DNA of 64,000 nucleotides from Octopus vulgaris (taxonomy: Eukaryota), in assembly GCA_951406725.2 (NCBI GenBank), contig OX597831.1:6758001-6822000 (forward strand). The letters run 5' to 3'. The notes under the pieces are model-generated. The model was not told where the DNA came from, ran no database searches, and was given only the letters and a program-made list of their open reading frames with translations. A program made the translations under genes and the position numbers. Shown piece after piece: positions 35,450 through 39,268 of the stretch; within the stretch, counting starts at the first letter, position 1, and every line of letters begins with the position of its first letter.

Positions 35450-35772
35450 GGCTGGGAACTTTATCGGATTGTAATGTTTCATTTTGATATTTTCAAGAGA
35501 AACTAAGTTTGCAACGAAATACTTTGAAATAAAAACGAAACAAAGTCATTCAACATTCTTCGTTCTTAGTAGCATGGGAGACAACTCTGTACAAGCTTCC
35601 ACATTCGATGGTGGTCGAAGATTCTTTAAAAATTGAACAATTCGGAGAAAAATACGTAAAAATATACACGTTGCTGATTTTTAGCCTTCTGCTTACCAAA
35701 GTATGTCATTTCAAGACCCGATACTTAAAGCTTGTTGTTATGTTGAACACCTTTTCAAACTCCACCTGCCTA
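35450..35772 (+). repeat. Direct repeat copy 1 flanking the parvoviral element
   Basis: 323 bp, ggctgggaactttatcgg...aactccacctgccta. Matches 38591-38884 apart from a 29-bp indel and 7 substitutions counted by eye. Confidence 0.95.
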
Positions 35773-35901
35773 GGAAGGTGTTTCAGTAAACACCGCACTG
35801 CCATCGATGCCGATGGAGTAAGAGGTGCCCCGCCTAATTATTACATACTGCCATCGATGCAGTTGAGAATATGGAAAGACCAACGCTGTAGTTACCGCCA
35901 C

Positions 35902-35909
35902 TATAAATA
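35902..35909 (+). promoter_or_regulatory. Candidate viral capsid-promoter TATA box
   Basis: TATAAATA begins 41 nt upstream of the VP ATG at 35943. Confidence 0.45.
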
Positions 35910-35942
35910 TAGCACCTGGATAACAACAACACATAGGTACGA

Positions 35943-37745
35943 ATGCCACCGATAAGAAAGCATCTCTACCGTAAAACAGAAAGCCGAGAATTCCGTCTAC
36001 CTGGATACGAGTTCTTAGGACCAGGTACAAATATATGCAAAAGGCGATACGACACTCCATTGAATGCATTAGACACAGCTGCCAAAGCACTTGACATCGA
36101 CTACGCCGATCCTTATAAAGGCACTTGGGAGGCAGACATCAAAAACGTGTTACCACAAGGTCCAACCGGTATCCTCGCCGCAGCAGCAATTACTGCAAAA
36201 CATTATCTCGGACTTGATAACAAATTCAGAAAAACCAACAATAACGATAATACTCCTGTCGATATTAATAATCATTGCGATCGCAAAAACATGGCTGACA
36301 ATCAAGAAACTTCGTCAGAGTCCCAGCCGTCAAACGGATGGGCAGGAACATCACATGGAACTCCAGTCCCCCCTCGGAGCGACAATTTCATGAGAGAATA
36401 TACAATCAAGAGAACATTCCGAAACATGGTCAAAACAACTAATATGAACGGTGCTAAAGTTACATTTCAACAATTTCAAGGCAATGAAAAAGGTTGCCAT
36501 CAAGTAGGCCACTACTACTACGGTACAGTTTCATCGGAGGACTACATTATCCCTTACTGGCTAACAAGTTGGATCAAGCCCATACACTTCGAACAAAGCA
36601 TCAAAACAGCAACCTCATACAGGATCAAATCTATAGGTTTTGAAATAACTGACATTATCGGAGGCGAGTGGACTACACAAAAAAACGAAGAGGTGTTCAT
36701 GCAGAGTCCATATCCTTACTTCGAGTTGTTCAAAGACACAGGATGTTAAATAGGACACGGCAACCTCAAATCCATCTCACATATACCAAACGATGGGTTC
36801 GCATCTATACAACCAGATACGCCAACTCAACTAGAACTTCCAAAGTATACGTTCGCTTACTGCGCACCGAAGCAATACGTAAACGAAATTAAAAGTTGCG
36901 ACAAATTAACTACAGACACAACATGCGAAACAAACATTACAAAGCTTCATGACTGGAGAGAAATGCCAAACAAGTTAAAAATACACCAAGGCGATACATA
37001 CGGACATATGTGGGAAAACCCGTCTCGGTTAAAAGTGCCACTCACTAACATATCTCAGAATGATAACGACACGGTTCACGGGGTGATTCTCCACTATTGA
37101 CAATCAGTTAATTCACAAACGAGCATGGGTTTCCCGTACACATGGGACGGGTGCCTTGACATTGCAACTGCACCCGAACTCGGTGTGGAAGGACAAGTGC
37201 ATCACGAGAGCTTCGGTGAAACTAGAAAAAGAAAACGTAAAGGAAACAAAGAAGACTTGTGCTATACTGAATACTCCGACATGAATTTCGATCATCAACA
37301 ACCAGTCAAAGAAGCAGACGGAACGGAAAAAATTAGGAGCGGAAACATGGTAACAGCTAACAGGACATTGATAAACAAAGTGCTTTACACTTCAGAAGAT
37401 CCGCCTCCAATGATACTGATAAATGTCCCACCTATCGTTAGACTAAACGGAACTAAAGCACAAACCTACTTCAACTTTGACATCACTTACACCATTCAAC
37501 TGGAGGCGTACTACGAGGCTATGGTACACCCACAAAAAGTAGCTACGATCAATCCTAGAGTCGCTCAAAAAGCTACTTACACAGGATTTAATTACGATTT
37601 GTTCTGCGCCACGCCGCCCCCAGCAAGGCATTTGCACGGTGTCGCCCCTAAAGGGAAACGTCACGGAAGAACTGCTTTTATGGATGCCGAATCATCTGGT
37701 GCGAACGTACTGAAACCCTTAAGTGGCCACTTCGTCAACAAGTGA
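35943..37745 (+). pseudogene. Endogenous parvovirus/densovirus capsid gene (VP1 with PLA2 domain)
   Basis: LPGYEFLGPGT..PLNALDTAAKALDIDY..EAD..AAAITAKH is the Parvoviridae VP1u PLA2 signature (Ca-loop xLGPG plus DxxAxxHDxxY, here H>L). ORFs 35943-36749 and 37125-37745 and the sequence between them are in one frame: 600 codons with stops at 36747-36749 (TAA) and 37098-37100 (TGA). Likely VP2 start MADNQETSS at 36291. Confidence 0.88.
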
Positions 37746-38262
37746 TAATAATAATAATAATAATTGTGTACAGTGCTCAGGTGCACTACAACTCATCTAA
37801 AGTCCATATATAATCAGGTGTAGTTTCGACGGATTTCGGAAAGCATGAGAGCCTTAAAGGATGCAGTGTCATAGCAGTCAACAACTGACGCAGGCAGTTT
37901 ATTCCATGCTTCAGCAACTCTGAGCATGAAGAAATGTTTCCGAAAGTCATGGGAGCTGTGTTGTTTTCTGACTTTGTAGGCATGGAGATCAAAAAGGTGT
38001 TCAGTGTTGTTATTGGTAAGGTGGTTGACAACTTTGTGGGCGTTTACCAAGTCCGTCGCCAGACGCCGGAGCTTCAGTGAATCTATGCCCAGGGAAACTA
38101 GGCGCTCAGAGTATGGTAGGTGTCTGATGGAGGGTATGCGTTTCGTTGCACGTCTCTGAACAGATTCCAGGAGGTCAATGTTCTGAGCAAGATAGGGGTT
38201 CCAAACTGATGATGCGAATTCCAAGTGTGGTCGTACCATAGCTGTATACAGTTTTAAATAGA
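37746..38262 (-). mobile_element. CR1/L2-type LINE 3' fragment, inverted, abutting the VP stop
   Basis: MVRPHLEFASSVWNPY..HFFMLRVAEAWNKLP. Its microsatellite tail begins at the VP stop codon. Confidence 0.9.
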
Positions 38263-38590
38263 TTACTAATGATCACACCCACAAGCGCTGCCACGGTTTT
38301 CAACAGCACAGGCCTGATAATCTCATCTATGAATAGGCGATACTACTCATATCTTCACATACCAGCGATGGAGACGCCAACGACAACAACTGCTTCGACA
38401 ACTAAGGAGTCATTTAATAACCTCGTTAAATCAGAAGACCTACACCCTTATACTTGGGTCTACAGATTTAATGAGGAGAACGAATTCCCATGGGAAGAAG
38501 CTCCTTTTATATACAAGCCACAAGAGACTTTCCAATACAAACCAAACCACATCAGGAATTATTTCATCAACATCATTACACGACATCCAT

Positions 38591-38884
38591 GGCTGGGAAC
38601 TTTATCGGATTGTAATGTTTCATTTTGATATTTACAAGAGAAACTAACGAAACAATGTCATTCAACATTCTTCGTTCTTAGTAGCATGGGAGACAACTCT
38701 GTACACGCTTCCAGATTTGATGGTGGTCGAAGATTCTTTAAAAATTGAACAATTCGGAGAAAAACACGTAAAAATATACACGTTGCTGATTTTTAGCCTT
38801 CTGCTCACCAAAGTATGTCATTTCAAGACCCGATACTTAAAGCTTGTTGTTATGTTGAACACCTTTTCAAACTCCACCTGCCTA
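38591..38884 (+). repeat. Direct repeat copy 2 flanking the parvoviral element
   Basis: 294 bp; see copy 1. The last ~28 nt are LINE sequence. Confidence 0.95.
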
Positions 38885-39206
38885 ACACCCGTGGACATGT
38901 TTACAAAGTCAGAAAACAGCACAGCTCCCATGACTTTCGGAAACATTTTTTCACACTAAGAGTTGCTGAAGCATGGAACAAACTGCCGGCATCAGTCGTT
39001 AGTTGTCGGAGCACTGCATCCTTCAAAACTTCCATGCTTCCTGAGATTCGCCAACACTACACCTGATTTTCTCCCCTCCATACACACGCAAGCATGTATC
39101 TGACTCATATACACTGTTCGCTTCCCAGACATTTGTACATTACTGCATATTCTTTATATGCACTTTTGACTAGTTGTGGTGCACCTGAGCACTGTATACA
39201 ATAATT

Positions 39207-39267
<61 letters not shown>

Positions 39268-39268
39268 C
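38857..39268 (+). mobile_element. CR1/L2-type LINE 3' fragment with (TAT)n tail
   Basis: EHLFKLHLPNTRGHVYKVRKQHSSHDFRKHFFTLRVAEAWNKLP; closely similar to 27760-28115. Confidence 0.9.

Follow-up and report, generated by a model that had tools for sequence, protein, structure and literature searches.

The locus described here, within a window of 64,000 nucleotides of Octopus vulgaris DNA, is probably a broken, single-copy endogenous parvoviral element, that is, an ordinary viral fossil rather than a retrotransposon capture. It is host-flanked, inherited and orthologous across related hosts. The viral insert (35773-38590) holds the whole capsid gene (VP) and then the start of NS1, with most of NS1 missing and no terminal hairpin, and is bordered by two copies of a segment, X, each ending in LINE sequence. 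From the analysis of these junctions we lean towards a reading in which end-joined viral DNA would have been copied into the host at a point 29 nt into a young LINE already resident there, with duplication of a 323-bp target in a Z-pattern-like manner.

Architecture of the cassette

Along the window, X with 29 nt of LINE is followed by VP, an inverted LINE, the NS1 start, a second X and a second LINE 3′ end (Table 1). The initial annotation had described a viral VP in a repeat-bounded mosaic with LINE 3′ ends, and its order and coordinates hold. Its direct repeats were also reproduced by alignment: the copies at 35450-35772 (323 bp) and 38591-38884 (294 bp; BLAST E 1e-125) are separated by seven substitutions across 294 aligned bases and a single 29-bp gap at 35505-35533, and both include the X/LINE junction. 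Copy 1 exits the LINE at ...ccta/ggaagg, while copy 2 runs on as ...ccta/acaccc. The LINE piece in copy 1 is genuine, but was given as 28 nt; sized against the third LINE copy at 27757 it measures 29 nt (35744-35772), being identical to 38856-38884 and matching 27757-27785 at 27 of 29 positions.

Table 1. Features of the parvoviral cassette and its surroundings in the window
Feature	Position	Strand	Remark
Third LINE copy, virus-free	27510..28115	+	Boundary and subfamily control
Left flank, host DNA	35351..35449	.	GC 0.29; between long (TAT)n array and repeat copy 1
X copy 1, likely duplicated host target	35450..35743	.	No recognised family
LINE 29 nt, from 5′-truncated end of young LINE	35744..35772	+	Closes repeat copy 1
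Left junction patch	35773..35847	.	Fold-back copy of LINE end and 14-nt downstream copy
VP upstream region with TATA box	35848..35942	+	TATA 35902-35909
Parvoviral VP, 600 codons, two stops	35943..37745	+	PF08398 and six homologues
Inverted 5′-truncated LINE 3′ end, second subfamily	37746..38263	-	(ATT)n tail abuts VP stop
Parvoviral NS1 5′ end, right end of viral insert	38264..38590	+	ATG 38368; ~74 codons
X copy 2	38591..38855	.	29-bp deletion relative to copy 1
Young 5′-truncated LINE 3′ end	38856..39267	+	(ATT)20 tail 39209-39267; first 29 nt close repeat copy 2

The boundaries between viral and non-viral DNA are placed by homology at 35772/35773 and ~38590/38591, and the repeats lie outside both, because homology to NS1 does not extend beyond the first bases of X. 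Subtracting the insert and one repeat from the sequence leaves flank, X, truncated LINE, tail and flank, i.e. an ordinary locus. Between the virus and the second LINE are 265 bp of non-viral X, and comparison of the junction sequences revealed no short duplication bordering the whole cassette.

A decayed but complete capsid gene

VP has six homologues with 40-45% identity, five of which span its entire length; its start and stop agree with all five, the sixth match being N-truncated. The reading frame is interrupted in the window by stops at codons 269 and 386 (36747-36749 and 37098-37100), and contigs of run X7 carry frame-shifting indels. A PLA2-like N-terminal domain is detected (PF08398, 29.5 bits versus a cut-off of 23.9), although its active-site motif is degenerate compared with the homologues. 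The structural model of homologue P0002 reached a pLDDT of 31.5, too poor to classify the capsid; all 45 Foldseek matches listed for this model were parvovirus capsid entries, none of them reaching E 0.001. Purifying selection on VP was considered and is unsupported: 7 of the 18 differences from X2 are synonymous, and neutrality was not rejected (p 0.07-0.21).

The insert starts upstream of the TATA box, and the TATA region is indeed kept upstream of VP, as annotated. The VP upstream region bears a weak likeness to the C-terminal motif of the NS1 helicase. This match to P0032 was equalled in 4 of 1000 shuffles, but at 4.7 bits and rank 7 among 2562 chunks it is weak. The 'CHR' at the end of P0032 was rejected as a sign of NS1/VP overlap; it aligns with the NS1 family's own SP[KR] motif.

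The adjoining DNA is an NS1 5′ end

By homology, the DNA between the inverted LINE and X copy 2, previously annotated as 'unique ORF-like DNA', is the 5′ end of a parvoviral NS1. It comprises ~100 bp of upstream DNA and the codons that follow the ATG, and matches P0025, P0026, P0030 and P0032. Aligned with P0032, 38404-38745 gives E 5e-17, the clear part of the match stopping near 38595; P0032 itself bears PF01057 at 67 bits, and the NS1 family profile matches AAV Rep at 1e-13. An NS1 profile scores 51.5 bits on the right end of the insert and ends at 38595, 5 nt inside X. The long TPR-like matches P0027-P0029, of which only P0027 was looked at, were set aside as chance. No other NS1 or VP fragment occurs within the 64-kb window, the viral part contains neither a long inverted repeat nor terminal hairpins, and scans of viral contigs and metagenome contigs found no related viral locus.

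The parvovirus genome is linear and carries NS upstream of VP. The order VP then NS1 could nevertheless be native if the lineage were circular or gene-reversed, in which case no end-joining of a linear genome would be needed; this concerns the template only and would fit either integration route discussed below. Without the inverted LINE, the NS1 ATG follows the VP stop after only ~100-130 bp, no hairpin remnant is present, and the likeness to the NS1 C-terminus ahead of VP is weak, as a native order would predict. Parvovirus genomes are, however, linear with terminal repeats (the accessible part of PMC5013282), and one cluster of homologues has an uncut 606-aa VP in all seven members, on contigs of 3.4-4.1 kb, unlike circles opened at random. 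We therefore regard a native order as very doubtful.

The virus is a member of a cephalopod-associated parvovirus lineage that is unclassified. The accessible part of PMC5013282 (Francois et al., 2016) describes sequences from molluscs that are closer to Parvovirinae than to densoviruses and fall outside known genera, and lists the Octopus vulgaris transcript fragment JR446908 as VP-like. NS fragments of Sepia officinalis and Euprymna scolopes from the same text share helicase motifs with the NS1 family found here, as judged by eye rather than computed. That text reports short transcript fragments without flanks, whereas the present locus provides a complete VP, junctions and orthologues; for this lineage, it is both a source of the whole capsid gene and a dated fossil with orthologues. 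PMC5013282 was the only paper on octopus or cephalopod parvoviruses found in a search that took in few subscription papers; the available portions of PMC12287923 and PMC3918229 contain nothing specific to the locus.

The element is single-copy and shared by related hosts

Junction support was sought in contigs of runs X1, X2, X5 and X7 (4 of 20 rows), requiring at least 31 letters on each side. The junction of the 29-nt LINE piece with the virus was seen in all four runs and NS1/X in three. The left flank/X junction was found in one (X7 contig 23; X2 contig 8 has 25 letters on one side), and the inverted LINE/NS1 junction in none under this rule, with 29-30 letters in X1, X2 and X5. The VP/LINE-tail and X/second-LINE junctions are absent from all pieces listed for the four runs, and no listed contig spans the whole cassette. 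The lack of a spanning contig and of the X/second-LINE junction is what would be expected if the repeats were an assembly artefact or a haplotype merge. This is highly improbable, however, because X7 contains two distinct versions of X, one next to the left flank and the other next to NS1, X2 has pieces of both copies, and X5 has copy 2 with its 29-bp deletion. The deletion is absent in X7, so that the window groups with X5. In X7, only two X-type contigs among those listed cover 35541-35602, and thus no donor copy of X is listed.

The cassette junctions are common to organism labels A, B and C, which are ~2% apart. VP depth was 60.9 in X1, 52.9 in X7 and 8.8-10.9 in X5, near that of single-locus contigs of the same runs. 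A cassette at single-copy depth that is shared by three organism labels is therefore not a spreading LINE-virus chimera. A tandem array or high-copy circle was likewise rejected: NS1-X-VP contigs (X1, X5, X7) look loop-like, but collapsed repeats mimic this, and the depths are near single-copy. No RNA run was among those listed with the locus. Run X2, guessed to be RNA, covers flank, X, VP and NS1 evenly; this is not taken as evidence for expression.

Two LINE subfamilies of probably different history

The LINE family is common, with three copies in 64 kb, and is presumably of CR1/L2 type, by its ORF2 C-terminal motifs. Its copies are 5′-truncated with microsatellite (ATT)n tails, and by eye all three are without a clear short target duplication. 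No Pfam family matched the LINE fragment, and Atlas returned only unnamed eukaryotic clusters. The LINE-to-VP depth ratio was 1,179 in X2 versus 74,566-92,394 in X1, X5 and X7.

The young LINE shares 95.5% identity over 355 bp with the copy at 27757-28108. The inverted LINE shares 76% and 83% identity with the two remaining copies, from both of which it differs at 59 of 270 columns, which assigns it on sequence grounds to another subfamily, and not, as annotated, to one common LINE family. Other genomic copies diverge at 38263 for the inverted LINE and before 38856 for the young LINE. The (TAA)n that follows the VP stop belongs to the inverted LINE as its tail; X7 has just 20 letters at that spot. 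There, contig 24 passes from VP (to 37702) over these 20 letters and resumes at 38272, no more than 8 bases from where the inverted LINE has its 5′ end, without the LINE itself. Because it belongs to another subfamily and X7 joins VP to NS1 without it, the inverted LINE is likely a later insertion, although its deletion in X7 could give the same picture. In 352 bases, the second LINE shows between 3 and 8 differences of its own, compared with 7 in 294 between the repeat copies, and is not measurably older than the repeats. Independent LINE insertions, against which the initial annotation had set its capture model, are thus indicated for the inverted LINE by subfamily and X7, whereas the second LINE is about repeat-aged.

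These observations bear on the chimeric cDNA of LINE and viral RNA that had been proposed, in which a LINE reverse transcriptase would switch between the two RNAs and insert the full mosaic, including both LINE pieces. LINE sequence does lie near both ends of the viral DNA, the VP-to-NS1 join (from the stop codon to ~100 nt before the NS1 ATG) could fit transcript ends, and retrocopying of viral mRNA by LINEs is an established process in mammals, according to the accessible text of PMC2987831. Yet one of the two LINE pieces belongs to the other subfamily and is missing in X7, poly(A) is lacking, the cassette is not enclosed by a short duplication, X stands in between, and no RNA template gives X twice. 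We consider this origin very unlikely.

Segment X and the left junction

X is likely host DNA and the duplicated target, although its composition is mixed and no empty allele was seen. It gave no NS1 profile match and no Pfam family at cut-off in any of the six frames. Copy 1 has a GC content of 0.34 and an AT skew of 0.01, compared with 0.41-0.46 and an A-rich 0.20-0.26 in the viral parts. Its CpG observed/expected ratio of 1.18, on the other hand, is virus-like; 8% of 196 host tiles reach 1.0. X as a continuation of NS1 was rejected, as it has no profile match beside the 51.5-bit NS1 part.

The CpG content, together with a faint colinear match of one X frame to NS1 residues 62-121 (42 of 1000 shuffles), would suit a foreign X. 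In this case, a defective viral circle carrying X and 29 nt of LINE would be invaded by a broken resident LINE end or LINE cDNA and copied for 1.1 turns, which yields exactly the observed order. Such an origin is nonetheless unlikely: the faint match is one of 24 tests on X, X lacks an NS1 profile match although the neighbouring NS1 part scores 51.5 bits, the viral strand skew is missing from X, and prior capture of LINE sequence by the virus must be assumed.

The left junction patch, which was likely repair-templated, begins with a fold-back of the LINE end in which 9 of 10 bases match. Of 62,495 window positions, 144 (0.23%) give a match of this quality, in a test picked after the sequence had been seen. 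Template cover of the patch is within the host background, being reached by 26 of 271 tiles at k=8 and 87 of 271 at k=6. A hairpin at 35796-35863 (z -4.3) was rejected as a viral telomere; it is short and imperfect, a 14-nt repeat with a palindromic core drives the signal, and it is equalled by another sub-window (2 of 94 with z below -3).

Integration by DNA repair or by a coupled LINE event

The 323-bp duplication likely arose by replication-type DNA repair rather than reverse transcription. In the reading we lean towards, the 3′ end of the young LINE would already have adjoined X when a host end was broken 29 nt within it and briefly folded back. The broken end would then have copied end-joined viral DNA, circular or head-to-tail, through VP and the genome ends into NS1, and synthesis would have returned to the host 323 bp behind the break through a few bases common to NS1 and X. 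Later, the LINE of the other subfamily may have inserted at TAA-like bases near the VP stop in the lineage to which organisms A and B belong, and the element would have decayed since. The annotation's own alternative, integration of viral DNA followed by LINE insertion and local duplication, comes close to this scheme, which we hold to be somewhat better than an even bet. That the break lies just 29 nt from the young LINE's 5′ junction is a coincidence under the repair model.

With a second LINE of about the repeats' own age, a coupled LINE-virus event keeps a minor share of the probability. Here, the young LINE, in the midst of target-primed reverse transcription, would itself have captured parvoviral DNA. 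A single intermediate would have copied LINE RNA, upstream host X and the end-joined viral genome or other viral nucleic acid in series as its first strand, producing the 323-bp duplication; on the other strand, the host top strand would have copied 29 nt of LINE, dropped off, folded back and been end-joined to the virus. The age of the LINE, which is indistinguishable from that of the repeats, and the left breakpoint 29 nt from the LINE 5′ junction are in line with this; for R2, it was at one time suggested that synthesis jumps from the element's RNA to target DNA upstream (accessible part of PMC2718515). However, three switches are needed compared with two in the repair model. The junction survey in the same text favours microhomology priming over such a jump and has duplications of tens of bases; moreover, no further junction of this type between a LINE and viral DNA is known here, and the cassette is present in a single copy. 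Should the coupled model be true, it would represent a new LINE route to the endogenization of DNA viruses, with a germ-line record, a non-LTR element and no mRNA retrocopy.

Relation to other viral integrations

Partial target duplication at AAV integration has reportedly been described by Henckaerts in 2009. With the Z-pattern of Merkel cell polyomavirus (MMBIR-type; accessible part of PMC7470373), our locus would share partial or concatemeric viral DNA between target copies and microhomology at the junctions. It differs from Z-pattern and AAV duplications, as far as that text covers them, in being germ-line, fixed across species and derived from an ssDNA virus, with 323 bp duplicated, the reported ones measuring 6 bp or at least 17 kb; the host origin of the duplicated segment is only inferred here. 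If the repair model is true, Z-pattern integration would no longer be confined to tumour viruses but include an inherited element of an ssDNA virus, which is useful rather than surprising.

U6-L1-type chimeras are template-switch products made by LINEs. Our locus, a viral gene beside LINE 3′ ends, is comparable with them and with the bornavirus EBLN-type retrocopies of viral mRNA (PMC2987831, accessible text). Relative to the EBLN type described there, the cassette has no poly(A) and no short duplication round a transcript-like unit; its insert includes the VP promoter and continues into NS1, and viral DNA and tailed LINE are not in direct contact. The same text describes animal endogenous parvoviral elements as germ-line NS or VP fragments, mostly broken and some rearranged, for which non-homologous recombination is invoked. 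Compared with those, the present element is young (~2% between organisms), belongs to an unclassified lineage and retains a readable germ-line integration scar of the kind lost in old elements.

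A parvoviral insert between two direct repeats

The feature is real: a young, single-copy endogenous parvoviral element with a well-preserved integration scar. Its repeat-bounded layout, as described in the initial annotation, was borne out by the window sequence. The two direct repeats differ by seven substitutions in 294 aligned bases (2.4%, 95% interval 1.0-4.8) and their alignment has a single 29-bp gap. Both terminate in 29 nt of LINE, as defined against a third, virus-free LINE copy; their non-LINE part is termed X. Inside are the VP gene, a LINE end in inverted orientation and a 327-bp stretch once called unique, and past the second repeat the LINE continues to an (ATT)20 tail.

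Features of the cassette and its surroundings (window positions)
Feature	Position	Strand	Details
Cys-rich frame	2345-2746	-	133 codons, hydrophobic tail at end
LINE, virus-free copy	27510-28115	+
Second non-LTR element, fragments	30028-31324; 34492-35350	-	RVT_1 and zf-RVT matches below cut-off
56-bp inverted repeats	33703-33910		96 bp apart, 93% complementary
Direct repeat, copy 1	35450-35772
Viral insert	35773 to about 38590
VP gene	35943-37745	+	PLA2-like domain PF08398, 29.5 bits (cut-off 23.9)
LINE, inverted copy	37746-38263	-
NS1 profile match	38404-38595		51.5 bits
Direct repeat, copy 2	38591-38884
LINE, tailed copy	38856-39267	+
Minisatellite	39516-40335		45-bp unit, ~18 copies, 90-bp higher-order period; 250 bp right of cassette
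LINE-like ORF, 3' end	40909-41322	-	137 codons

VP has six homologues without names (40-45% identity), five of which span its full length; its start and stop line up with theirs, which shows a complete gene with a native stop codon. Codons 269 and 386 are stops that interrupt the frame. The 327 bp, taken initially for unique ORF-like DNA, proved to be viral, namely the start of NS1. Comparison with 1.84 billion representatives yielded six matches, three of them (P0025, P0026 and P0030) to its N-terminal ORF; the other three, long repetitive proteins, were discarded. From P0025 the trail led to P0032 (514 aa), in which Parvo_NS1 scores 67 bits. A profile built from 17 family members matched this DNA and nothing else significantly among 2562 window chunks. 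Because the match stops at 38595, NS1 homology ends at the initial bases of X, and X has no NS1 match although the following NS1 region is well conserved within the family. The insert thus comprises VP with its TATA box, then the NS1 start, without the NS1 middle and without hairpins. Immediately before VP, a stretch faintly resembles the C-terminal motif of NS1 (reached by 4 of 1000 shuffles; 4.7 bits, rank 7; not significant alone), which fits the usual NS1-VP order. A natively circular or reversed genome is highly improbable.

Relatives of the virus

The NS1 family profile is nearest in PDB to AAV Rep (E 1e-13). An NS1 cluster and a VP cluster both include contigs of size 4078, 4065 and 3790, which suggests, indirectly, that the two families derive from the same genomes. 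Sepia and Euprymna fragments share the NS1 family motifs when compared by eye (PMC5013282, supplement); that paper places four mollusc sequences outside known genera and lists an Octopus vulgaris VP-like transcript. The literature search on octopus or cephalopods and parvoviruses, with most subscription journals outside its coverage, matched no paper. The lineage is unclassified and likely infects cephalopods. In the P0006 and P0035 clusters, equal-length contigs from many samples encode a 606-aa VP that is uncut and an NS1 truncated to 370 aa; a different host probably bears a further endogenous element of this lineage.

Origin of the integration scar

With NS1 identified, the repeats are located outside the virus. 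When the insert and one repeat are removed, left flank, X, truncated LINE, tail and right flank remain, i.e. an ordinary LINE insertion. We lean towards the simplest history, in which a resident LINE would already have been in place, viral DNA would have been copied into a break lying 29 nt within that element, and synthesis would have returned to host DNA 323 bp behind the break. The junctions may agree in part with such DNA end repair. On the right, the NS1 match extends 5 nt into X; at the left junction, 9 of the first 10 bases match the LINE end as a fold-back, a value reached by 144 of 62,495 window positions in a test picked after inspection. Against the end-repair fit, the total templated cover of the 75-nt left patch is equalled by 26 of 271 host tiles, and by 0 of 22 viral tiles (word length 8). 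Hairpin-primed and templated junction bases are known in polymerase theta-type joining (PMC5728401; PMC5508229), and Merkel cell polyomavirus shows a Z-pattern, with virus flanked by two copies of a host segment as in the repair model, that is attributed to microhomology-mediated break-induced replication (PMC7470373). In GC (0.34) and strand skew (0.01; viral parts 0.20-0.26) X resembles the host, but its CpG o/e is virus-like (1.18; 1.0 is reached by 8% of 196 host tiles). With this mixed composition X is putative host DNA; a defective viral circle already carrying X and the 29 nt is improbable.

If the virus had entered in one event together with the insertion of the LINE itself, a scenario that we consider unlikely, the identical final structure would result. 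This scenario would account for a break so close to the LINE 5' end and for the matching ages of LINE and repeats: the tailed LINE has 3 private differences, or up to 8 of 352 with unpolarised sites counted, and so is about as young as the repeats. However, it requires more switches, and the R2 survey in which a jump to upstream DNA had once been put forward came to favour microhomology priming (PMC2718515).

One of the two options in the initial annotation derived everything from one chimeric cDNA of viral RNA and one LINE family. The tailed LINE (38856-39210) shares 95.5% of its sequence with the copy lying 11 kb distant, whereas the inverted one shows 76% and 83% identity to the other two and differs from both in 59 of 270 columns, so that the inverted and tailed copies did not arise from a single RNA. 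With 3 copies in 64 kb the family is common, which leads one to expect about one copy per 20 kb, and by our arithmetic the odds of a second copy inside the 3.8-kb cassette are roughly 1 in 6. LINE retrocopies of viral mRNA bear poly(A) and short duplications (PMC2987831). Here poly(A) is missing and X intervenes between virus and LINE, which are stronger arguments against an RNA route than the TATA box: as proposed, the latter excludes a VP mRNA template, but a longer NS transcript remains compatible with it. We therefore give the chimeric cDNA very little credence; it, the circle, native order and mis-assembly are all weaker than the repair and coupled models.

The locus in other sequencing runs

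Part of the stretch is present in 20 of 24 listed runs (10 studies, 4 organism labels). Four runs (X1, X2, X5 and X7) were compared, all as contigs, with a 31-letter rule for junctions. The LINE-29/virus junction was bridged in all four, NS1/X in three and left flank/X in one (X7; X2 nearly); mis-assembly is scarcely credible. The X/tailed-LINE junction occurred in no contig listed; with only one or two 31-letter words specific to it, it is invisible to short contigs. Relative to the window, substitution distances amount to 0.3% (X1), 0.9% (X2), 2.1% (X5) and 2.2% (X7), so the insertion is older than these splits and on a par with the divergence of the repeats. At 35541 and 35548 both repeat copies of X7 depart from the two in the window, which hints at gene conversion between the repeats; if true, these are older than 2.4% divergence implies.

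The 29-bp deletion of repeat copy 2 is present in X5 and absent from X7, and is thus a derived state common to organisms A and B and missing in C (X7). NS1-side contigs of X1, X2 and X5 extend 29-30 letters into the inverted LINE, while one X7 contig passes from VP (37702) to 38272 with 20 unaligned letters between them, the inverted LINE being missing. The simpler reading is that this LINE was inserted later in A and B, since the join in X7 lies no more than 8 bases from its 5' end; deletion in C could also produce this arrangement.

The stop at codon 269 is absent from X2, X5 and X7, and that at codon 386 is retained in X1 and X2, the runs with all differences listed. The X7 VP has frame-shifting indels; in X2, 7 of 18 VP differences are synonymous and neutrality is not rejected (p 0.07-0.21). 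In every DNA run VP depth, a poor measure of copies, is near single-locus contig depth; the cassette has therefore not multiplied. X1 has a second short contig (depth 56) over 35789-35860 of the junction patch, which represents either another allele or one more related fragment elsewhere in the genome of that run. X2, whose contig set of 95 million letters is presumed to be RNA, evenly covers flank, X, VP and NS1 (35352-38855), with a LINE-to-VP depth ratio 60-80 times below the other three runs, a lead towards putative read-through transcription of the locus.

Neighbouring elements

The non-LTR piece at 34495-34693 abuts a 650-bp (TAT)n array and resembles microsatellite-targeting R4/Dong elements. 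The 56-bp inverted repeats resemble a small non-autonomous DNA transposon. No Pfam family was found for the LINE-like ORF or the Cys-rich frame. The latter is reminiscent of a final exon coding for the end of a protein that is secreted or anchored in the membrane, and the cassette could, conjecturally, sit within an intron of its gene.
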